This document shows positions 9,700-58,432 of a stretch of 64,000 bases of DNA, one piece after another. A program made the translations under genes and the position numbers. The stretch covers positions 8,493 through 72,492 of the forward strand of contig JBBIHG010000003.1 of NCBI GenBank assembly GCA_037447125.1. Direction: 5' to 3'. The stretch's first letter is position 1; every line of letters begins with the position of its first letter. The DNA comes from Chloroflexota bacterium (lineage in GTDB: Bacteria > Chloroflexota > Anaerolineae > Aggregatilineales > Aggregatilineaceae). The notes below the pieces were generated by a model. That model searched no databases. It had not been told where the DNA came from and saw only the letters and a list, made by a program, of their open reading frames with translations.

Positions 9700-11247
9700 C
9701 TACAGCAGCACATACAGCGCGTGCGCCGCGTCGGTTGCCCAGTTGAGCAGCGGCGTGACCAGAATCGTGCCGAAGAGCAGCACGCCCGCCGCTGAAATGG
9801 TCAGCGCCCACTTGAAGGGCGGGTCCACTGGCACCGGCTCGTCGGACGGGCTTTCTTCCATGTACATGACCTTGACGACGATCAGGTAGTAGTACAGGCC
9901 GACGATCACGTTGGCCACGCCGACCAGGGCCAGCCAGACCAGCCCGGCATCCACCGCCGCGCGGAAGAGCAAGAACTTGCCGATGAAGCCCGCCGCCGGA
10001 GGGATACCCGCCAGGCTGAGCAGGGCCAGGGTCATGGCCAGCCCCAGCCAGGGGCTGCGCCGGCTGAAGCCGGCCAGGTCGCGAATCTGCTCGCTGCCGG
10101 TTGCCCGTGTGAAGAGGATGACCACGGCGAAAGCCAGCATGTTCGACAGCACGTACATGAACATGTAGAAGGCCACCGCCGCCGCTCCGTCGCCGCTTTT
10201 GTCGGTGGAGATGGCCGCCACGCCCATCAGCACGTAGCCAGCATGGGCGATGGTCGAATAAGCCAGCAGGCGCTTGATGTTGCTCTGTACCAGAGCCAGC
10301 AGGTTGCCCAGCGTCATCGAGACGACCGACAGCACGACGGCAAGCTGCACCCACAGGGCGCTGTAGTCGGCAACCGCCTCGGCGGCGCCGAGCAGTGCGG
10401 CCGGCGGGAAGACCGCCAGCAAGAAGCGCAGCATCAGCCCGACACTGGCCGCTTTGCTGGCCGTGCTCAGCACGGCGGTGACGGACGTGGGCGCGCCCTC
10501 ATAGACATCTGGCGTCCAGAAGTGGAACGGCACGGCGCTGATCTTGAAGGCGAAGCCCGCCATAACCAGCCCCAGGGCGACGATCACCGGCGGCTCGTTG
10601 AGGCCGGTGGTGGCGACCAGGCGGCCCAACTCGTAGATGTTCGTCTTGCCGGTCAGCCCATAAACCAGCGACAGGCCGTAGAGCGTTATCGCTGAAGCGA
10701 AGGCGCCGAACAGGAAATACTTGAGGCCCGCCTCCGCGCTGGCGTCATCGTCGCGCAGGTAGCCGGCCAGCACGTACAGCGCGATCGAGAGCGTCTCCAG
10801 CGCCAGGAAGACCATGATCAGGTCGGCAGCGGCGCTGGCCAGGCTGGCCCCGATGATCGAGACAATCAGGATGGCGTAGAAATCGCCGCGCGCGCGCAGC
10901 TTGGGAATGCCCATCGTGATCAGCGCGCCGATGCCGCCCGCCAGCAAGACCATCACCCGGAAAATCTGGGTCATGTCGTCGTGGCGCACCATGCCACCAA
11001 GCACAAGCTGATCCGTCAGTTCCCCGCTTTGCGGAGGGACACCCACCAGGAAGACGATTGCCGCGATGCCCAGCAGGCCGAACCCGGCCACATAGCCAAT
11101 GTCCTGGCGCTGCGCCCGTCGCCAGATCAGGTCGAGGGCCAGCACCAGCACGGCCAGGGCCACCATCAGGAGTTCGGGTAGGATAGCGATGACGCTCGCC
11201 TGGGCGTCCGTCGAGAAGTCCAAGTCAGCCTCCCAGCATCGAAACAA
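9700..11247 (-). CDS. nuoN: NADH-quinone oxidoreductase subunit N
   Basis: 'FHFWTPDVYEGAPTSVTAVLSTASKAAS' NuoN signature; polytopic membrane protein. The start is uncertain and overlaps the nuoM stop by 23 nt. Confidence 0.88.
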   Translation of the reverse strand: MFRCWEADLDFSTDAQASVIAILPELLMVALAVLVLALDLIWRRAQRQDIGYVAGFGLLGIAAIVFLVGVPPQSGELTDQLVLGGMVRHDDMTQIFRVMVLLAGGIGALITMGIPKLRARGDFYAILIVSIIGASLASAAADLIMVFLALETLSIALYVLAGYLRDDDASAEAGLKYFLFGAFASAITLYGLSLVYGLTGKTNIYELGRLVATTGLNEPPVIVALGLVMAGFAFKISAVPFHFWTPDVYEGAPTSVTAVLSTASKAASVGLMLRFLLAVFPPAALLGAAEAVADYSALWVQLAVVLSVVSMTLGNLLALVQSNIKRLLAYSTIAHAGYVLMGVAAISTDKSGDGAAAVAFYMFMYVLSNMLAFAVVILFTRATGSEQIRDLAGFSRRSPWLGLAMTLALLSLAGIPPAAGFIGKFLLFRAAVDAGLVWLALVGVANVIVGLYYYLIVVKVMYMEESPSDEPVPVDPPFKWALTISAAGVLLFGTILVTPLLNWATDAAHALYVLL

Positions 11248-12829
11248 TCGGCCTGACGCCGGACTCGATCATCGGCGCCATCACGCGGGGATAGACGCCG
11301 AGCAAGACCAGCCAGAAGACGAGGATGATCAGCGCGACTTTGTCGTAGACAGTGATCGTCGCGATGTGTGGGAAGCGCTCGGCGTGGAACTCGCCGAAGA
11401 AGACCTGCCCCACGACGCGCAGCACGTAAGCCGCCGTGATGACGATACCCAGCGCCGCGATCATCGCGATCAGCCCGTAGTAGTTGAAGGTGCCTGTCAG
11501 CCAGTTCGGGTCCGGGTCGAAGGCCGGGCCGTTCCACAGGCCGAGGAAGATGGGGAACTCGGCGACGAACCCGCTCAGGCCGGGCATGCCCATGCTCACC
11601 AGACCGCCGATGATGAAGGCCACCGCCACCCAGGGCATTTTCTGGACGAAGCCACCCAGGCTGGGGATGTCGCGGGTGTGGGCGCGGTCGTAGACCATGC
11701 CCACGCAGGCGAAGAAGAGGGCCGTCATGATGCCGTGCGAGAACATCTGCAGGCCCGCGCCGGTCATGCCGGTGACGTTCATGGTGGCGAAGCCCATGCT
11801 CACCAGCCCCATATGGCTGACCGAGGAGAAGCCGATGACATACTTGAAATCGCGCTGGCGCATGGCGATCAGCGCGCCATAGACCACGTTGATCAGCGTC
11901 AGAAAGACGATCCAGGGCAGGTGCACGCGCGCGCCCTCGGGCATGAGTTGCACGCCGACGCGCAGCGCGGCGAACGCGCCCAGCTTCATCAGCACGCCGG
12001 CGTGGATCATCGAGACGGCGGTCGGCGCGGCCACATGACCATCCGGCGACCAGTTGTGGAACGGCCACACACCGGCCAGCACGCCGAAGCCCAGGAAGAC
12101 CAGCGGGAACCACAGCTTGGCCGTCGTCACCGCCGACCACGCTGGCGAGAACGGCGTGTCGAACGCGCCCGCTTTCATCGCCGCGTGCAGGTGCACGAAG
12201 TCGAAGCTGTAGACGCCTGTGGCGTGGCCCGCCTTGAAGTAGAGGGCCAGGATGCCGATCAGCGCCACCACCGACCCGACCAGGATGTAGAGCGTCAGCT
12301 TCATGGCCGCGTACTGGCGCGTCTGGTCCCATCCCCAGATGACGATCAGGAAGTACATGGGGAAGATGGCCAGCTCGTAGAAGAAGAACAGCACGAACAG
12401 GTCAACGGCCAGGAAGACGCCGAACACGCCCGCCACCAGCAACAGGAAGAAGGCCATGAACTCGCGCGGGCGGTCTTCGATGCCCCACGAGATGAGCACG
12501 CCGGTGAAGCCAGCGATGGCCGTCAGCAGGACCATCGGCGCGCTGATGCCATCCACGCCCAAGTGCCACGAGATGCCCACCGCCTCGATCCACTTGACAT
12601 GATCCTCGAAGGCGAAGTACAGCCCGCCGTCGCCGTTGACGGCGTTGGCCTCGTCCACGCTGTAGCCGAAGAAGACAAAGAGCGCCAGCAACAGGGTAAG
12701 GCCGGTGGACATGGCGGCGATGATCCGCGCCTGCTCTTTGGCTTCCTTCTTGAGCAGGAGGATGACCACCGCGCCGACGATCGGCGTCAGGAGGATGCCC
12801 GTCAACACACCGCTAAACGTAATGACCAT
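11225..12829 (-). CDS. nuoM: NADH-quinone oxidoreductase subunit M (divergent copy, proximal to nuoN)
   Basis: 'ISWHLGVDGISAPMVLLT' and 'FHNWSPDGHVAAPTAVSMIHAGVLMKLGAFAALR'. Confidence 0.88.
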   Translation of the reverse strand: MVITFSGVLTGILLTPIVGAVVILLLKKEAKEQARIIAAMSTGLTLLLALFVFFGYSVDEANAVNGDGGLYFAFEDHVKWIEAVGISWHLGVDGISAPMVLLTAIAGFTGVLISWGIEDRPREFMAFFLLLVAGVFGVFLAVDLFVLFFFYELAIFPMYFLIVIWGWDQTRQYAAMKLTLYILVGSVVALIGILALYFKAGHATGVYSFDFVHLHAAMKAGAFDTPFSPAWSAVTTAKLWFPLVFLGFGVLAGVWPFHNWSPDGHVAAPTAVSMIHAGVLMKLGAFAALRVGVQLMPEGARVHLPWIVFLTLINVVYGALIAMRQRDFKYVIGFSSVSHMGLVSMGFATMNVTGMTGAGLQMFSHGIMTALFFACVGMVYDRAHTRDIPSLGGFVQKMPWVAVAFIIGGLVSMGMPGLSGFVAEFPIFLGLWNGPAFDPDPNWLTGTFNYYGLIAMIAALGIVITAAYVLRVVGQVFFGEFHAERFPHIATITVYDKVALIILVFWLVLLGVYPRVMAPMIESGVRPIVSMLGG

Positions 12830-12858
12830 GCATAAGCCTCCTATGCGTGCAGGAGAGT

Positions 12859-13209
12859 CTAGGTGTCCGCATCCACGTCAGGTGGCACCAGCGGTTCGAT
12901 CAGCGCAATCAACTCCGGAATCTCGTGCTGGACAACACGCCACACCACGTCCAGGTCCACATCGTCGTATTTATGAACCAGCTGATTGCGCATGCCAATG
13001 ATGCTTCTCCAGGGTATCTCAGGGTGCATCTCCCGAAACTCCTCCGATACCCGTCGTGCCGCCTCGCCTATGATCTGAATCGAATGCACGATGGCATACT
13101 GCCTCATCGCATCCTCAGCGAGACCATCCCGGTCCACACCCTGCGCAAACTGCTGCGCCAGGCGCGCTGAGTCCAGAATGTCAAGCAGATACGCCAGATC
13201 GCGCGACAT
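12859..13209 (-). CDS. hepT: HepT (DUF86/HEPN) toxin of a type VII HepT-MntA TA pair
   Basis: Rx4HxY motif 'RNQLVHKY'. ATG at 13209 (MSRDLAYLLDIL) overlaps the mntA 3' end by 29 nt. Confidence 0.85.
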   Translation of the reverse strand: MSRDLAYLLDILDSARLAQQFAQGVDRDGLAEDAMRQYAIVHSIQIIGEAARRVSEEFREMHPEIPWRSIIGMRNQLVHKYDDVDLDVVWRVVQHEIPELIALIEPLVPPDVDADT

Positions 13210-13519
13210 AGATCGTCTTGGCCGAGCGCAGGATCGCCCGGCGACGAAGATAATTCCGACTTTCTTCAACTGCGCGTCGGTTGACCAGGTCTACCCGGCG
13301 ACCGAATACCGCCTCGACTTCCTCTTGCATGGCGATCAAGTCGTCCAGTGACCGTTCACTCCCTGGCGCGAACGTCACCAGCACATCAATGTCACTGTCC
13401 GCGCCGAAGTCATCGCGCAGCACCGAGCCAAACAGCGCCAGTTCGTCAATCTGCCAGCGGCGGCAGAAACGCTCCAGCGCCTCTGTGGGCAATGCGACGC
13501 GCGCTTCGTCCCCGGTCAC
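13181..13519 (-). CDS. mntA: MntA minimal nucleotidyltransferase antitoxin
   Basis: GSx10DxD motif 'LFGSVLRDDFGADSDIDVLV'. Starts 13 nt after the stop of the upstream nuoM paralog. Confidence 0.85.
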   Translation of the reverse strand: MTGDEARVALPTEALERFCRRWQIDELALFGSVLRDDFGADSDIDVLVTFAPGSERSLDDLIAMQEEVEAVFGRRVDLVNRRAVEESRNYLRRRAILRSAKTIYVARSGVSA

Positions 13520-13531
13520 GCTCGCCCTTCC

Positions 13532-15250
13532 TTACCCGCCCAGGAAGCGGACCACGCCATCGTTGATCACCCGCAAGACCCAGTTCGGATACAGCCCGGT
13601 GATCAGCATCAGTGCCATCAGCGGCGCCAGCGCGATCAGCTCGCGCCGCTCGATCTCCAGCGAATGCCGCGTGCGATGGTACTCGGCCCATTCCTCGTTC
13701 AGCGGGCCGTGCAGCAGCTTCTGAATCCCCTTGAGGATGTAGATGCCCGTCACCAGCAGGCCGGCCATGCTCAGCAGCACGTAGACCGGGTACGCCTTGA
13801 ACGACCCCGACACGACCAGGAACTCGCCCACAAAGCCGTTCAGCCCCGGCAGGCCCAGCGAGGCCATGCTCACGAAGATGAGCGCCGCCCCGTATACAGG
13901 CACCAGCGGCCACAGCCCGCCGAAGCGGCGCAGATCGCGCGTGTGCGCCTTGTGATAGATCGCCCCGGCCAGCAAGAACATGCCCGCGCTGCTCAGCCCG
14001 TGATTGAACATCTGCAACACCGCGCCGTTGAGCGCCAGCCGCGCATCCTGCCGGTCGGACTCGCGCAGCTCCGCCGGATAGACCTGCTCCACTGTGTCAG
14101 CCAGTTGGGTAGCAGTCATCTTCTCGTAGCCGTCAATCCCGGCCACGCCGGCCAGCAACCCATACTGGTTGTTGGCCTCGGCCCACACCGTGCCGTACAT
14201 CAGCGCGGCCACGGCCAGCCCCAGCACGACAAAGCCCATGTGATTCACCGACGAGTAGGCGACCAGCCGCTTGAAGTCGTTCTGGCCCCACGCCCCCAGC
14301 GCCCCCAGGACAATGCCCGCCATGGCCAGGAAGCCGAGAATGTCCACCAGGTTGTAGCTGAGGCTGAACAACTGCCGCTCGACGATCCACTCCTTGGGGA
14401 AAAGGGGGATGGCCAGCCGCAGGAACCCATACGCGCCCAACTTGAGCAGCACGCCGGCCAGCAGCATCGAGCCGGCGGTCGGCGCTTCGGTGTGCGCGTC
14501 GGGCAGCCAGGTGTGGAACGGCCAGGCCGGAATCTTGATCAGAAAGGCGATGGTGAAGCCGAGCAGGGCGTAATACTTGACAATGCTCACATCCACGCCC
14601 AGAATCTCGCCCCCGCGCATCAGGTAGCGCGGCCATTCCTGGAGCATCACCGGGATGTCGAAGCTCCCCACCGTCAGGCCGATGAGCTGCGTGGCCAGGA
14701 GCAAGCCCAGCGACCCGGCCATTGTGTACAGGAAGAACTTGTTGGCCGCATAGCGCCGGTTCTCGCCGCCCCACAGGTAGATCAGGAAGTACATCGGCAC
14801 CAGCCCGATCTCCCAAAAGAGGAAGAAGATCACCATGTCCAGCGCCACGAAGACGCCGAGTAGCCCTGTCTCCAGGAAGAGGAAGAGGGCCATGTGCGCC
14901 TGCACCCGGTCTTTGACCTCGAACGAGATCAGGATGGCCAGCGGGACGAGCAGGCCGGTCAGCAGGATCATGGTCGCGCTCAGGCCATCCACGCCCACGT
15001 GCCACGAGATGTTGAGCTGCGGGAACCACTGCGCCTGCGCTTCAAAGGACCATTGGCCAGCGCCGGGCGGGTTGGCGTGGACGTCGTAGAAGACGCCGAT
15101 GGCCATGACCATCACCACCAGGCTGATGACCAGCGCCGTCCAGCGCGCCAGGCGCTCGCGCCCCCGCGGGATGATGAAAACCACCGCCGCGCCGACGATC
15201 GGCAGCAGGGTCATCGTGGTCAGAAAATCGAGGGGCAGAATATCATTCAT
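13532..15250 (-). CDS. nuoM: NADH-quinone oxidoreductase subunit M, second copy (572 aa, with an internal ~50 aa insertion)
   Basis: 'ISWHVGVDGLSATMILLT' and 'FHTWLPDAHTEAPTAGSMLLAGVLLKLGAYGFLR'. Confidence 0.9.
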   Translation of the reverse strand: MNDILPLDFLTTMTLLPIVGAAVVFIIPRGRERLARWTALVISLVVMVMAIGVFYDVHANPPGAGQWSFEAQAQWFPQLNISWHVGVDGLSATMILLTGLLVPLAILISFEVKDRVQAHMALFLFLETGLLGVFVALDMVIFFLFWEIGLVPMYFLIYLWGGENRRYAANKFFLYTMAGSLGLLLATQLIGLTVGSFDIPVMLQEWPRYLMRGGEILGVDVSIVKYYALLGFTIAFLIKIPAWPFHTWLPDAHTEAPTAGSMLLAGVLLKLGAYGFLRLAIPLFPKEWIVERQLFSLSYNLVDILGFLAMAGIVLGALGAWGQNDFKRLVAYSSVNHMGFVVLGLAVAALMYGTVWAEANNQYGLLAGVAGIDGYEKMTATQLADTVEQVYPAELRESDRQDARLALNGAVLQMFNHGLSSAGMFLLAGAIYHKAHTRDLRRFGGLWPLVPVYGAALIFVSMASLGLPGLNGFVGEFLVVSGSFKAYPVYVLLSMAGLLVTGIYILKGIQKLLHGPLNEEWAEYHRTRHSLEIERRELIALAPLMALMLITGLYPNWVLRVINDGVVRFLGG

Positions 15251-15361: not shown

Positions 15362-17623
<2,262 letters not shown>

Positions 17624-18662: not shown

Positions 18663-19856
18663 CTAGTCGCCTGCACCGGCCACCGACTCGACTGGCAGAT
18701 CGGTCCCGGCCACGCGCGCCTCGATCCGCGCCCGCTCGCGGCGTCCCCGATCGGCCAGCAGCGCCCCGATGACCACGAGCATGGCCACATTGGTCAGCAG
18801 CAGGACCAGCGTGGGCACTACGGCCTCGCCGGCGCTGTTGATCTGGTTGCTGTTGGGGATCAGCTTCCACACCAGGGCGACGACGAGCAGGTTCGCCAGC
18901 CCGACCGGCACCAGGAATTTCCAGTTGAAATCGAGCAGGTGATCAATGCGCAGGCGCGGCAGCGTCATGCGCACCCAGACCAGCACCCAATAGACGAACA
19001 GGCTCTTGATCAGCAGGTAGAAAAAGCCCAGGATGGCCACATCCTCGGCGAACGGGCCGCGCCAGCCGCCCAGGAAGAGGATCGCCGTCAGCACGCCGAC
19101 AGTGAAGGCGTGCAGGAACTCGGCCACATAGAACATGCCGAACTTCATGCCCGAATACTCGATGTGAAAGCCGGATACCAGCTCGGACTCGGCTTCGAGC
19201 AGGTCGAACGGGCCGCGCCCGATCTCGGCCTGGCTGGAGATCAGGAAGATCAGCACGGTCAGCGGCACGGCGAACACGTACCAGAGGTGCTGTTCGCGCA
19301 CGATCTCCTGCGTGCTCATCGAGCCAGAGAGCAGCACTGGCACCAGCAGGGCCAGCACCAGCGGCACCTCGTAACTGACCAGTTGGGCGACCGCGCGGAA
19401 GGCCGACAGCAGCGCGTACTTGTTGTTGCTGCCCCAACCGGCCATGATCACCGCCACCGTGCCCAGCGACCCCACCGCCAGCAGGTAGAGCACACCGATG
19501 TTCAGGTCGGTGCCGATCCACACCGCGCTGAAAGGCACCACCGCCCAGATCAACGTCACGGCCAGCACTGACAGAATCGGGGCCAGGTTGTAAACCCAGC
19601 GGTCCACGCCCTTGTTCATGATGTCTTCTTTGAGCAGGATTTTGACGGTGTCGGCCACGGTCTGGATCAGCCCGAAGGGACCCACCCGGTTCGGCCCGAC
19701 GCGGTCCTGGAAGCGCGCGGCCCACTTGCGCTCCAGCCAGATGCCCAGCAGCGTCCACAGCAGGCCAAAGACGGCGACGACGATCACCCCGATCGCCTTG
19801 GCGATGAGCACTGCCAGATCGCGCGAGAACCCAATATCCTGTAACAGACCTGTCAT
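18663..19856 (-). CDS. nuoH: NADH-quinone oxidoreductase subunit H
   Basis: '[38 protein letters not shown]'-type NuoH signature. Only 9 nt separate its stop from the nuoJ start, so nuoI is not there. Confidence 0.93.
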   Translation of the reverse strand: [397 protein letters not shown]

Positions 19857-20322: not shown

Positions 20323-20513
20323 TGCAGGCTCGCCCTCCAGTGTGATCTGGATGCACCGCACGCGCACGCGCCGGGCGCAACAGCCCGCTAGTATAACAAT
20401 CAGCCAGGGGATGGGCAATTTCCGGGCGCGTCGCGCCACCATTCTAGCACACGGCCCGGTGAACACAAAACCCGTGCCAGGGGGAACGCATCCGCACTTG
20501 GGGGCGCAATGCC

Positions 20514-53977: not shown

Positions 53978-54009
53978 TGCCTGAAATCCGTTGAGTCCCG
54001 GAGTTGGGC

Positions 54010-55089
54010 ATGGTGCCGCCTGTTCAGCAATCGTTATTCGTAACCCGACAGGCCAGGCGATATAACGTCCCATTTCCCTCCACCCGCTATCAGGGGAGCA
54101 AACTCAAGCTGGCGGAGTGGATATGGGCGAACGTTGAGGACCTGGAATTCGATACTGTCTTGGATCTGTTTGGCGGGACAGGCTGTGTCAGCCACTTATT
54201 CAAGACGGCTGGTAAGCGCGTCATCTACAACGATATCCTGCGGTTCAACTGGACTATCGGCCTGGCCCTAATCGAAAACAGGGATGCGCGCTTAACGCCA
54301 GCGGATATCGAACTGGTGCTTGAGCGACATCCCGGCATCAACTACCCCGATTTCATCCAGCGAACGTTCAGCGGCATCTACTTCACTGACAGCGAGAACG
54401 CCTGGCTGGATCGCGTTGTTTACAACATAGATCATTTGTTGACCGATCCGTTCAAGCAGGCTTTGGCGCGCTTTGCGGTGTATCAGGCTTGTATCGTCAA
54501 GCGTCCCTACAACCTCTTTCATCGCGCTAACCTGTACATGCGCCAGGCCAGAGTCCAGCGATCCTTTGGCAATAAGACGACATGGGATACACCTTTTGAA
54601 GTCCATTTTCGCGCTTTTGCCACCGAAGCCAACGCAGCCGTGTTTGACAACGCGCGCAACAATCGGGCTATTTGTGGCGATGCGCTCGAAGCACCTGTTG
54701 ACGTGGATCTGGTTTATATTGACCCGCCCTATGTGAACCACAGAGGCGTAGGGGTGGACTATCTGGATTTTTACCATTTTCTCGAAGGGCTTACGCTGTA
54801 TGATGAGTGGCAACAGCGCATTGACTACAGCACCAAGCACCGGCGGTTGCAGCGTTTGGAGTCACCCTGGACTAGACCCGGCACCATCCTGGCGGCTTTT
54901 GAGGCAGTGATTGCCCGTTATCGCAAGAGCATTCTGGTTGTCTCCTATCGCAACGATGGCATACCATCCCAAGATGCGCTTATAGAGGTGCTCAAGCGAT
55001 ACAAGAGCAATGTCTTTGAGGCCAATAAGCGCCAGAAGTACGTCTTGTCTAAACGCGATTCAGCCGAGCTGCTCCTAATTGCACTGTAG
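54010..55089 (+). CDS. D12-class (Dam/M.EcoRV-like) N6-adenine DNA methyltransferase
   Basis: 'RYQGSKLKLAEWI', 'LDLFGGTGCVS', 'LVYIDPPYVN'. Low GC (31/60 at 54181-54240, versus 43/60 at 53521-53580). Confidence 0.85.
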   Translation: MVPPVQQSLFVTRQARRYNVPFPSTRYQGSKLKLAEWIWANVEDLEFDTVLDLFGGTGCVSHLFKTAGKRVIYNDILRFNWTIGLALIENRDARLTPADIELVLERHPGINYPDFIQRTFSGIYFTDSENAWLDRVVYNIDHLLTDPFKQALARFAVYQACIVKRPYNLFHRANLYMRQARVQRSFGNKTTWDTPFEVHFRAFATEANAAVFDNARNNRAICGDALEAPVDVDLVYIDPPYVNHRGVGVDYLDFYHFLEGLTLYDEWQQRIDYSTKHRRLQRLESPWTRPGTILAAFEAVIARYRKSILVVSYRNDGIPSQDALIEVLKRYKSNVFEANKRQKYVLSKRDSAELLLIAL

Positions 55090-55113: not shown

Positions 55114-55626
55114 ATGGCTTCTCAAGATGCATTCCGCGACTCCTTGGTCTCCTACTTTGGCAGGTTGCGTGAGCGGGTGACAACAGAGACGGGGGATTGG
55201 ACGGTAAAAGGATTCATTGACGTTTACCAGCGCATCTACACGATCACGCTGGACACCAAAGTGCTGTCCAAAGCACTTGAGTTGTTGATGTTTCCAGCGT
55301 TGGTCGAGTTTGCTCAGGCAAACGGCTACCAGATGGTGTTGGCCCGCCAACAAAACCAATATCCCGACATCAGTTGGCTAGCTCCCGATGGCGCCAAATA
55401 TGCGCTAGACATCAAGTCCACATATCGTAGAGTGGTGGATCGCCAGGGGAGGTCCAAGGTCAACGGGATGACGTTAGGGACGTACACAGGCTACTTCAGG
55501 GCGCGAGAAAGTGCCTCAATCACCACCTTTCCCTACCAGGACTATGCCAAGCATTATGTGCTCGGCGTAATCTACTCTCAGATCAAGGGCCTTGATGAGC
55601 GGCGTGTCTATGACATCGGCCAACTG
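55114..55626 (+). pseudogene. EcoRV-family restriction endonuclease, C-terminally truncated (ORF tail to 55722 is antisense of hepT)
   Basis: 'LDTKVLSKALELL', 'QQNQYPDISWLAPDGAKYALDIKSTY' and 'FPYQDYAKHYVLGVIYSQ' parallel R.EcoRV 'SDTKVLSTIFELF', 'QQNHYPDFTLYKPSEPNKKIAIDIKTTY' and 'YPFDQYIAHWIIGYVYTR' (recalled from memory). Similarity ends near aa 171 of an expected ~245. Confidence 0.7.
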
Positions 55627-55888
55627 CCACCAGGTCAACGCGGTCATACTCGTGGATCAGCTTGCTGCGCATTCCCGCGATCTGCTGCCAGGGTATCTCA
55701 GGGTGGCTGGCTCGAAAAGTGATTGAGGTGCGCCGGACAGCTTCACCAATGACCTCGATGCGCCGGATCACAGCGTCCTGGGTCTTGATATCCTGCTCAA
55801 AGGCAGCCTGATCCATGCCCTGCACGAAGGTCTGGATCATCTGTGCACTTTGCAGCATATCGAGCAGGTAGACCAGATCACGCTGCAT
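55583..55888 (-). pseudogene. hepT: HepT (DUF86/HEPN) toxin, second copy, apparently missing its C-terminal helix
   Basis: 'RSKLIHEY' Rx4HxY motif. Colinear with the 12859 copy up to 'DRVDLVAV' (down to ~55622). The remaining 12 codons are antisense of the endonuclease ORF. Confidence 0.65.
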
Positions 55889-56201
55889 ACACCACCCGCG
55901 CTGACTGCAAGATAGCCTTGCGCAGAAGATAATTCGGGTCGCGCTCGATGACCCGGCGATAGAGCAAATCTACCCGGCGGCCCAACAGCGCCTCCAGTTC
56001 GCGGCGCATTGCCTGGCGGTCGGGAACGGGATCGGCATCTGGCGCGAAAGTCACCAGCACGTCCACGTCGCTTTGCGGCCCGAAATTGCTGCGCAGCACC
56101 GAGCCAAATAGCGCCAGTTCGATGATGTTCCATCGCCGGCAGAACGCCGCAATGCCCTCCATCGGCAGATCAATCGGCAGCCGGTCTTGCGTCTTGCTCA
56201 T
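55878..56201 (-). CDS. mntA: MntA minimal nucleotidyltransferase antitoxin, second copy
   Basis: ATG at 56201 (MSKTQDRLP). 'LFGSVLRSNFGPQSDVDVLV'. Overlaps the hepT start by 11 nt. The tracked 311-aa ORF is an artefactual extension. Confidence 0.85.
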   Translation of the reverse strand: MSKTQDRLPIDLPMEGIAAFCRRWNIIELALFGSVLRSNFGPQSDVDVLVTFAPDADPVPDRQAMRRELEALLGRRVDLLYRRVIERDPNYLLRKAILQSARVVYAA

Positions 56202-56310
56202 CTCTGTCGCCCAATCACTCTCCTTCTTTGAGCGCCTATTATCCCCCAAACGCGGCGGAGAGAAAACCATCAGTTCAACAGGGTGTATCTCACGGTAGGG
56301 ACGAGATTCC

Positions 56311-56494: not shown

Positions 56495-58294
56495 CTAGGC
56501 CAGCGTCAGCGCCTTGCTCGCCACGAGGCGCGTCGCCAGGTCGGCGAAAGCCAGCACCGGCTGCGGCCCCAGGTCTTCGCCGGAGCGCAGCCGCACGCTG
56601 ACCGTGCTCGACGCCGCGTCGCGGTCGCCGACGACCAGCATCCAGGGAATCTTCTGCTGCGTCGCCGCGCGAATCTTGCCCCCAACGCGCCCGTTGGAGT
56701 CGTCCACCTGCACGCGCAGGCCCTTGCTGTGCAGGATGTTCGCCACGTCCTGGGCGTAGGCAATGTGCCGGTCGGCCACCGGGATCAGCGCGACCTGTAG
56801 CGGGGCCAGCCACGCCGGGAACGCGCCGGCGTAGTGCTCGATCAGCACGGCGACGAAGCGCTCCATGCTGCCGTACAGCGCGCGGTGGATCATGATCGGC
56901 TGGTGGCGCTCGTTGTCCTCGCCGACGTATTCCAGCTCGAAGCGCGCCGGCAGGTTATAGTCCACCTGCACGGTGCTGATCTGCCACTCGCGCTTGAGCG
57001 CATCACGGATGATGAAGTCCAGCTTGGGGCCATAGAAGGCCGCCTCGCCCTCCTCCACCGTGAAGTTCAGCCCCCGCCTGGTCGCCGCGGCGATGATCGC
57101 TTTGGCCGCCTGCTCCCAGACTTCGTCGCTGCCCACGTATTTGTCGCTCTGCGGGTCGCGGACGCCCACCCGCGCCCGGTAGTCGGTCAGCCCCAGGCTG
57201 CGGAAGATGAACTCCACCAGGTCCACCACGCCCAGGAACTCGTCCTCAAGCTGCTCCGGCGTGCAGAAGATATGGGCGTCGTCCTGGGTGAAGCCGCGCA
57301 CACGGGTCAGGCCGTGCAGCTCGCCCGATTTCTCGTAGCGGTAGACCGTGCCGAACTCAGCCATGCGCACCGGCAGGTCGCGATACGAATGCAGGTCGTC
57401 CTTATAGACGTGGATGTGGTGCGGGCAGTTCATCGGCTTGAGCATGAACAGGTCACCCTCCACCTCGAAGGGCGAGTACTGGCTGTCCTTGTAGTACGGG
57501 TAGTGCCCGCTCTTCTCGTAGAGGGCCACGCGCGCGATATGCGGCGTGATGACCGGCTCGTAGCCGCGCTCGATCTGCACCTCGCGCAGGAAGCGCTCCA
57601 GCAGGTCGCGCAGGATCGCGCCGTTGGGCTTCCACAGCGGCAGACCCTTGCCCACCAGTTGGTTGAAGGTGAACAGGCCAAGTTGCTGGCCGAGCGCGCG
57701 GTGATCGCGCTTGCGGGCTTCTTCGAGCAGGGCCAGGTACTCCTCAAGCTGCTCCGCCGTCTCCCAGGCCGTGCCGTAGATGCGGGTGAGCATCTCGCGG
57801 TTCTCGTCGCCGCGCCAGTAAGCGCCCGCCGGCGCTTTGAAGGTGATGCTCAGCGCGTCCGGGTTGATCTCGCGCGTGTTGGCCACATGCGGTCCCCGGC
57901 ACAGGTCTTCGAACGTGTCCTGCGTGTACGTGCTGATCACCACCGCTTCGTCGGTTTTCTCGCCGTACTCGTCCACGCCGCCACGCTCCAGCCCGTCAAT
58001 CAGCTCGATCTTGTACGGCTGGTCGTGGAACAGGACGCGCGCCTCACTGGCGCTGACCTCCTTGCGAACGAAGTCGTGCCCTTCGCGGATGATGGCGCGC
58101 ATCCGCGCCTCGATCTCGGCCAGGTCTTCATCGGTCAACGGGCGCGGCAGGTCGAAGTCATAGTAGAAGCCGTCTTCGATGGGCGGGCCGATGGCGATCT
58201 TGGCCTGGGGGAACTTCTCCAGTACGGCCTGAGCCATGACGTGCGCCGTGGAATGGCGGATGCGGTAGAGCTTGCTGTCTTGATAGCGTTTCAT
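56495..58294 (-). CDS. thrS: Threonine--tRNA ligase lacking the N-terminal TGS domain (599 aa)
   Basis: ATG at 58294 after AGGAGAA. 'RIRHSTAHVMAQAV' (editing-domain HxxxH) at residues 11-24. Class II motifs 'FRDLPVRMAEFGTVYRYE', 'GLTRVRGFTQDDAHIF', 'ERFVAVLIEH'. Anticodon-binding C-terminus. Confidence 0.92.
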   Translation of the reverse strand: MKRYQDSKLYRIRHSTAHVMAQAVLEKFPQAKIAIGPPIEDGFYYDFDLPRPLTDEDLAEIEARMRAIIREGHDFVRKEVSASEARVLFHDQPYKIELIDGLERGGVDEYGEKTDEAVVISTYTQDTFEDLCRGPHVANTREINPDALSITFKAPAGAYWRGDENREMLTRIYGTAWETAEQLEEYLALLEEARKRDHRALGQQLGLFTFNQLVGKGLPLWKPNGAILRDLLERFLREVQIERGYEPVITPHIARVALYEKSGHYPYYKDSQYSPFEVEGDLFMLKPMNCPHHIHVYKDDLHSYRDLPVRMAEFGTVYRYEKSGELHGLTRVRGFTQDDAHIFCTPEQLEDEFLGVVDLVEFIFRSLGLTDYRARVGVRDPQSDKYVGSDEVWEQAAKAIIAAATRRGLNFTVEEGEAAFYGPKLDFIIRDALKREWQISTVQVDYNLPARFELEYVGEDNERHQPIMIHRALYGSMERFVAVLIEHYAGAFPAWLAPLQVALIPVADRHIAYAQDVANILHSKGLRVQVDDSNGRVGGKIRAATQQKIPWMLVVGDRDAASSTVSVRLRSGEDLGPQPVLAFADLATRLVASKALTLA

Positions 58295-58432
58295 GAGCTT
58301 GTCGGTCTTCTCCTGTTGGCTTGCGTCGCTGCTGCGGGCGGGCGCACGAGTCACGGTCCGGCGGCGCCGTCCTACAACACCAGTCACACGGCAGATTGTC
58401 ACGTGCAGGGGGAACGAGCAGAGCTGCTCTGC

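Follow-up and report, generated by a model that had tools for sequence, protein, structure and literature searches.

The nuo operon in a 64-kb stretch of DNA from the metagenome-assembled genome (MAG) of a Chloroflexota bacterium of the class Anaerolineae (the whole stretch analysed here, referred to as the window) contains a gene pair for a HepT/MntA toxin-antitoxin (TA) module, located between its two nuoM genes. We consider it probable, at roughly 0.7, that this cassette is an old, vertically inherited module that persists as a selfish passenger in an insertion-tolerant spacer and is not a working part of respiration. The TA family is a known one and the setting is unusual, as the pair is a new member inside a respiratory operon. 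In our literature search, no TA module was described within a nuo operon, and a survey of HEPN proteins mentions embedding for R-M operons only (PMC3710099).

The nuo cluster and the embedded pair are all encoded on the minus strand of the window, in the order nuoA, nuoH (18663–19856), nuoJ, nuoK, nuoL, nuoM1, mntA, hepT, nuoM2, and nuoN, in agreement with the co-orientation reported in the preliminary description. The nuoL gene (15362–17623) encodes an enlarged protein of 753 amino acids (aa; TIGR01974, 583 bits), and is followed by nuoM1 (13532–15250; 572 aa), the NuoM paralog located upstream in the 2M-type operon (PF00361; TIGR01972, 482.7 bits versus a cut-off of 263.8). The spacer between the nuoM1 stop codon and the GTG start codon of mntA (13520–13531) contains a purine-rich, SD-like GGAAGGG, an arrangement also seen in congeners; the gap is as short as previously described, but measures 12 nt instead of 13. 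The mntA gene (13181–13519) encodes a minimal nucleotidyltransferase antitoxin of 112 aa (PF01909) and lies upstream of the toxin gene, with which it overlaps by 29 nt. The latter, hepT (12859–13209), starts with ATG and encodes a HEPN RNase toxin of 116 aa (PF01934). The hepT stop codon is separated from the ATG of nuoM2 by the 29 nt noted before (12830–12858), and an anti-SD/SD hairpin (CUCUCCU-N8-AGGAGG) is found directly before this start codon. The downstream paralog nuoM2 (11225–12829; 534 aa; TIGR01972, 449.7 bits) overlaps at its end with nuoN (9700–11247; TIGR01770, 383 bits) by 23 nt.

In Pfam profile searches, MntA matched PF01909 (E 2e-17, 63.8 bits) and HepT matched PF01934 (E 2e-29, 102.1 bits versus a cut-off of 23.5), and MntA also matched PDC-S09 of PADLOC (E 2e-24). 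The translation of mntA contains the catalytic motif G31-S32-x10-D43-x-D45 (13385–13429), and HepT contains the motif R74-x4-H79-x-Y81 (RNQLVHKY; 12967–12990), which in the model system comprises the RNase site and the tyrosine that is AMPylated. With both Pfam domains and both motifs present, the pair is intact, as originally proposed. It shows the features that define class I HEPN/MNT (type VII HepT/MntA) systems (Yao et al., 2020; PMC7641770): a HEPN toxin of PF01934 or PF08780 (here PF01934) with RX4HXY, a PF01909 protein with GSX10DXD, neighbouring genes, and the MNT gene upstream. As both proteins score 45 bits against the NCBIfam models MntA_antitoxin (NF047752) and HepT_toxin (NF047751), below the curated cut-off of 60, the pair is best regarded as a distant family member and not as an NCBIfam equivalog of the characterised proteins. 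The match of HepT to S. oneidensis HepT (PDB 5yep/6m6u) is weak (E about 1e-3) and extends across the active-site helix only. Among the copies at the nuoM1-nuoM2 junction, RX4HXY is kept in five of five intact HepT proteins and GSX10DXD in 11 of 12 MntA proteins, the exception (G036) having the motif deleted.

Besides the copy at the nuo junction, the genome of the window encodes five other HepT-like copies, one of these within the window. A second MntA/HepT pair (55583–56276, minus strand) is located downstream of thrS (56495–58402). Its HepT of 101 aa retains RSKLIHEY, has an aberrant C-terminus, and covers only positions 1–102 of the 120 in the profile; the gene overlaps a convergent open reading frame (55114–55722, plus strand) located after a DPPY-type DNA methylase gene (54004–55089, plus strand). 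The end of this toxin may have been clipped by an R-M insertion.

The identities of the nuo subunits were confirmed by NCBIfam and Pfam, and both nuoM genes exceed the TIGR01972 cut-off of NCBIfam. The two NuoM paralogs are about 31–42% identical to each other, nuoBCDI are absent from the cluster, and a canonical nuoM is also present on another contig of the same genome. For Chloroflexi, a 2M-type complex I is outlined in PMC7117926 (citing Chadwick et al., 2018), in which the gene order is nuoL-M-M-N and nuoBCDI are encoded elsewhere. We surveyed 121 genomes of the order with a fused query consisting of the C-terminus of nuoM1 and the N-terminus of nuoM2, and found the 2M arrangement to be common to the whole order sampled. 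As the two nuoM genes are adjacent throughout this sample, the duplication long predates the cassette. The proposed tie between the cassette and the junction created by the nuoM duplication did not hold up, since the duplication is the order-wide 2M architecture, and an origin of the cassette as a by-product of the duplication was ruled out. Three further features of the nuoM genes were observed. Within NuoM1, a hydrophilic insertion of ~55 residues (residues ~350–405), conserved in the family orthologs, splits the Pfam match in two. At one locus (L147, G035:C9) both nuoM1 and nuoM2 read as frameshifted, reflecting either decay or long-read assembly errors, and at another (L123, G033:C8) nuoM2 encodes 617 aa, with about 237 nt inserted between reference residues 67 and 71.

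In all 42 genomes of the family, nuoM1 and nuoM2 were identified and the sequence separating them was inspected. Intact pairs are present in five genomes, an intact mntA with a destroyed hepT in six (plus three partial cases), and scars containing cassette ends only in four, while the spacer is empty (17–128 nt) in about 20. The cassette or its remnants occur at this junction in the genus of the window (g1; nine of nine genomes) and in genera g7, g27, g8, and g28. Within g1, the window and G002 contain the intact pair; between these two, MntA is 87.5%, HepT 83%, and nuoM1 87% identical. Three congeners combine an intact mntA with a destroyed hepT, through an internal deletion in G008 and through replacement of the hepT core by a repeat element, with identical breakpoints, in G006 and G003. 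The remaining four carry scars in which the last ~20 codons of mntA are fused to the nuoM1 stop, together with the start of hepT (MSRDLAYLLD); the 3′ end of hepT (...PPDVDADT and the stop codon) is kept in three of the four. A pair in one genome and mntA only in another is found in g7 (G046 and G014, respectively), g27 (G038 and G037), and g28 (G039 and G040). A third g27 genome (G036) has an mntA without the DxD site and hepT fragments, and g8 (G015) has the end of mntA and a hepT stub. The comparison with the nuo clusters of relatives, which the preliminary description had called for, thus contradicts a recent, strain-specific insertion, as the cassette is older than at least four genera.

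A REP/MITE-like element (..GGCAATACGCCCCTAC..GCAGAGCAGCGCCCCTAC..) was observed at the junction of four g1 loci: L089 (G006), L092 (G003), L091 (G007), and L095 (G001). It has replaced the hepT core, with identical breakpoints, in several congeners whose positions on the nuo tree are not sister to each other. A related element ('CCTCACCCC...CCCCCTCTCC') is present in the same spacer in g27 and g5.

The MntA tree groups the junction copies of g1, g7, and g27 in a starred clade that consists of junction copies only (98/89). A tree of NuoM2 only left the relations between genera unresolved, so a concatenated NuoM1+M2+N tree was used, which places g1, g7, g8, and g27 in one starred clade (99/97), together with the cassette-free genera g6, g10, and g25. 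The simplest reading of these trees would be one insertion at the base of the g1/g7/g8/g27 host clade, after which the cassette would have been passed on vertically and lost completely from three genera. The g28 genomes fall outside this host clade, and their junction copies group with non-junction paralogs (99/90) in an MntA tree of which the deep backbone is poorly supported. As monophyly of all junction MntA copies is nevertheless not rejected (AU test, p 0.29), the number of independent insertions is uncertain. Within g1, the state of the cassette and the nuo gene tree disagree, and the hepT-replacement allele is common to genomes that are not sisters. Because intact copies are nested among decayed ones on the nuo tree, this conflict points to recombination between congeners or recurrent deletion at a GGGCG microhomology (nuoM1 end/mntA). 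Signs of mobility were not seen at the junction: there was no target-site duplication, recombinase, or conserved flank common to different cassettes.

Both genes of the cassette appear to be under strong constraint. Within g1, dN/dS is about 0.08 for mntA, compared to 0.15 for nuoM1 and 0.11 for nuoM2, and the hepT copies of the window and G002 give a value of 0.077. The orphan mntA genes of G003 and G006 must have diverged after the loss of hepT, since both genomes share the same hepT-replacement breakpoints; their dN/dS of 0.125 (at dS 0.23) therefore shows that the orphan antitoxin is still constrained. As purifying selection continues in genomes without hepT, this suggests an independent function for the orphan mntA, for example the neutralisation of paralogous HepT toxins.

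The order of decay is asymmetric. On a conservative count, hepT was destroyed and mntA kept in at least seven independent cases (two g1 alleles, g7, g27, g28, g8, and g32), whereas the reverse, loss of mntA with hepT kept, was never seen at the junctions of the 42 family genomes (one-sided sign test, about 0.008). Such a one-directional pattern argues that HepT is really toxic without MntA, and we regard it as the best evidence in this analysis that the module works. The cassette of the window is probably an old, vertically inherited and active HepT/MntA module.

TA modules usually carry their own autoregulated promoter. A scan with an E. coli-type consensus, which is weak evidence in a Chloroflexota genome, gave neither a sigma-70-like promoter nor an intrinsic-terminator-like site on the minus strand inside 12830–13531. 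The sole sigma-70-like match on the operon strand lies upstream of nuoA (20390–20418, minus strand; TTGCCC-17-TATACT with an extended TG) and is a consensus match only. As there is no room for own signals at either edge of the cassette, its transcripts most likely come from read-through of the nuo promoter or start at a promoter concealed within nuoM1. Moreover, nuoM2 and nuoN are intact and constrained, so that transcription must cross the cassette or start within it. The GC3 of the cassette (0.67–0.69) is lower than that of the nuo genes (0.88–0.92; genome median 0.80) and resembles that of the other TA copies in the genome, which would fit low-expression cargo.

The anti-SD/SD hairpin before nuoM2 forms in the MFE fold, with the 91-nt region being no more stable than shuffled sequences (z 0.52). 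The CUCC...GGAGG arrangement recurs across the family (loci L088–L126), and its presence even in the outgroup genus g11 suggests that initiation of nuoM2 translation is regulated or coupled. Since cassette-free genera, among them g11, also have it, the hairpin predates the cassette, and the cassette was rejected as its source. We also rejected the idea of a relay reading frame, in which hepT remnants would be kept in frame so that terminating ribosomes open the nuoM2 hairpin; three of the seven decayed g1 alleles are in frame from the hepT ATG to the original stop, which is chance level.

In the survey of the order, most nuoM1-nuoM2 spacers are shorter than 150 nt, and several hold other cargo. 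A genome of g32 (G052) carries an MntA of a different lineage ('...FCRQHHIRKLSL...') that starts 9 nt after the nuoM1 stop and has no HepT, and in total at least three MntA lineages are found in this spacer: that of the window, a second, and a third. At a further locus (L134; G046:C454, first 600 nt, minus strand), a second copy of nuoM1 (76% identical) is followed by hicA (PF07927, 46.5 bits), a hicB-like gene, the anti-SD hairpin, and the start of nuoM2. Either this is another 2M operon, or the contig comes from a related organism that was binned together with G046 (the contamination of the bin is 6%). Larger spacers in other families (L141, L143, L144, L145, L142, and L129) contain genes for GYD (PF08734), Methyltransf_24, and DUF2283 (two genera) proteins, as well as, in two genomes of a single genus, a secreted protein of ~255–262 aa that matches no Pfam family. 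The nuoL-nuoM1 spacer served as a control; it measures 3–227 nt in 22 family genomes and contains no gene in any of them. We tentatively entertain, at less than even odds, the idea that the nuoM1-nuoM2 spacer of 2M-type operons in this Anaerolineae order is a dedicated, promoter-less landing slot that small TA cassettes have entered repeatedly, and in which orphan MntA has been domesticated, for example to neutralise HepT toxins that are paralogous or incoming; its cargo would then comprise at least three MntA/HepT lineages, HicAB, and DUF2283-type genes. If true, such cassettes would have a mode of insertion into operon spacers that has so far gone unrecognised.

The history that we favour can be outlined as follows. 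The module would have inserted long ago in the spacer between the nuoM paralogs of an essential-looking operon, in the common ancestor of a clade comprising at least four genera, and would have been inherited vertically with the operon since. By analogy with the model system, free HepT is predicted to cut mRNA, and MntA to counteract it through oligo-AMPylation of Tyr81 within RX4HXY. In this insertion-tolerant spacer the cassette would act as a selfish passenger of the addiction type, eroding only from within, because deletions reaching either nuoM gene are expected to be selected against. Decay would start with deletion of hepT or its overwriting by the repeat element, continue with loss of mntA, and end in scars of the cassette ends.

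A different view, put forward in the preliminary description, is that placement inside nuo couples HepT/MntA dosage to how strongly the respiratory complex is expressed, or makes the duplicated nuoM locus more stable; the cassette would then be a functional, regulatory component of the operon. In favour of this, the arrangement is long-lived, both genes have a dN/dS of about 0.08, the gaps of 12 and 29 nt leave no room for own signals, and orphan mntA (G003/G006) is under purifying selection (0.125); strong constraint on both genes and on the orphan antitoxin would fit a host-beneficial role as well. Nevertheless, the operon of most relatives is intact while the toxin, or even the complete cassette, is missing: the intact pair is present in only five of 42 family genomes, hepT has been destroyed at least seven times, and the whole cassette is gone from several genera, whereas nuoM1, nuoM2, and nuoN remain intact and constrained. 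Recombination between the nuoM genes poses no threat that needs policing, as the paralogs are only about 31–42% identical, and the occupation of the same spacer elsewhere by HicAB, other MntA lineages, DUF2283, and GYD also speaks against a conserved respiratory role. We therefore consider adaptive coupling or stabilisation of the locus unlikely.

An alternative is that the HepT/MntA cassette is mobile and that each genus-level occurrence goes back to its own, fairly recent capture at a favoured insertion site, with no single ancient insertion. At least three MntA lineages and HicAB at one junction, the grouping of the g28 junction copies with non-junction paralogs (99/90), and a cassette GC3 that differs from the flanking nuo genes are in line with this, as are close homologs away from nuo (HepT 61–62%, MntA partner 61–67% identical) in G009:C9 and in L024, a locus from a Chloroflexota MAG outside the family sample. 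Yet the junction-only MntA clade of g1, g7, and g27 matches the starred host clade, all nine g1 genomes carry the cassette or scars with homologous end sequences, the low GC3 is shared by every TA copy of the window genome, and neither a target-site duplication nor a recombinase was seen. As a general account, repeated recent capture is improbable; we accept it for g28, G052, and the HicAB case, and not for the lineage of the window itself. More improbable by far is a recent, strain-specific insertion with its own promoter and terminator, insulated from nuo. TA modules being usually autoregulated, a promoter could lie inside the 3′ end of nuoM1, and the GC3 of the cassette is below that of its neighbours; however, a pair with 83–87% identity occupies the same position in G002, the nuoM1 of which is itself 87% identical, remnants are found throughout the genus and beyond it, the scan gave no terminator-like site between hepT and nuoM2, and nuoM2 and nuoN must still be expressed.

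On the reading as an old selfish passenger, the junction provides a natural time series: one cassette at one site can be followed from the intact pair through each stage down to the scar, with the toxin always lost first and the antitoxin still constrained afterwards. It indicates that selfish cargo can survive for long periods in a spacer of an operon under strong selection. If co-transcription with nuo is true, the junction would offer a clean system to study what a TA module does when it is unable to regulate its own transcription. For the annotation of 2M-type complex I operons, it serves as a caution that the two nuoM genes are not always adjacent.

Compared to known systems, the pair resembles the S. 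oneidensis-type HepT/MntA in its PF01934 HEPN protein with RX4HXY and PF01909 MNT protein with GSX10DXD, in the antitoxin gene that lies upstream of the toxin gene and overlaps it, and in the small size of the proteins (112 and 116 aa here). It differs in being only distantly similar in sequence, in having only 12 nt between mntA and the preceding gene as space for its own promoter, and in its location inside a respiratory operon with which it has been inherited across genera. The operon corresponds to the 2M type as described in PMC7117926 (citing Chadwick et al., 2018) in its nuoA-H-J-K-L-M-M-N order, its two divergent NuoM paralogs, and its enlarged NuoL (753 aa), but where the arrangement given in that source has adjacent nuoM genes, those of the window and of part of the family are split by a TA cassette or its remains.

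The decay at the junction recalls the "anti-addiction" idea, reportedly advanced by Saavedra De Bast and colleagues in 2008, by which chromosomal addiction modules are said to decay toxin first and to leave orphan antitoxins. In line with this, the antitoxin outlives the toxin in every informative case here, and the orphan antitoxin is under purifying selection. A difference is that MntA is an enzyme and not a labile binder, and the classical stability-difference logic of addiction may for this reason not apply.
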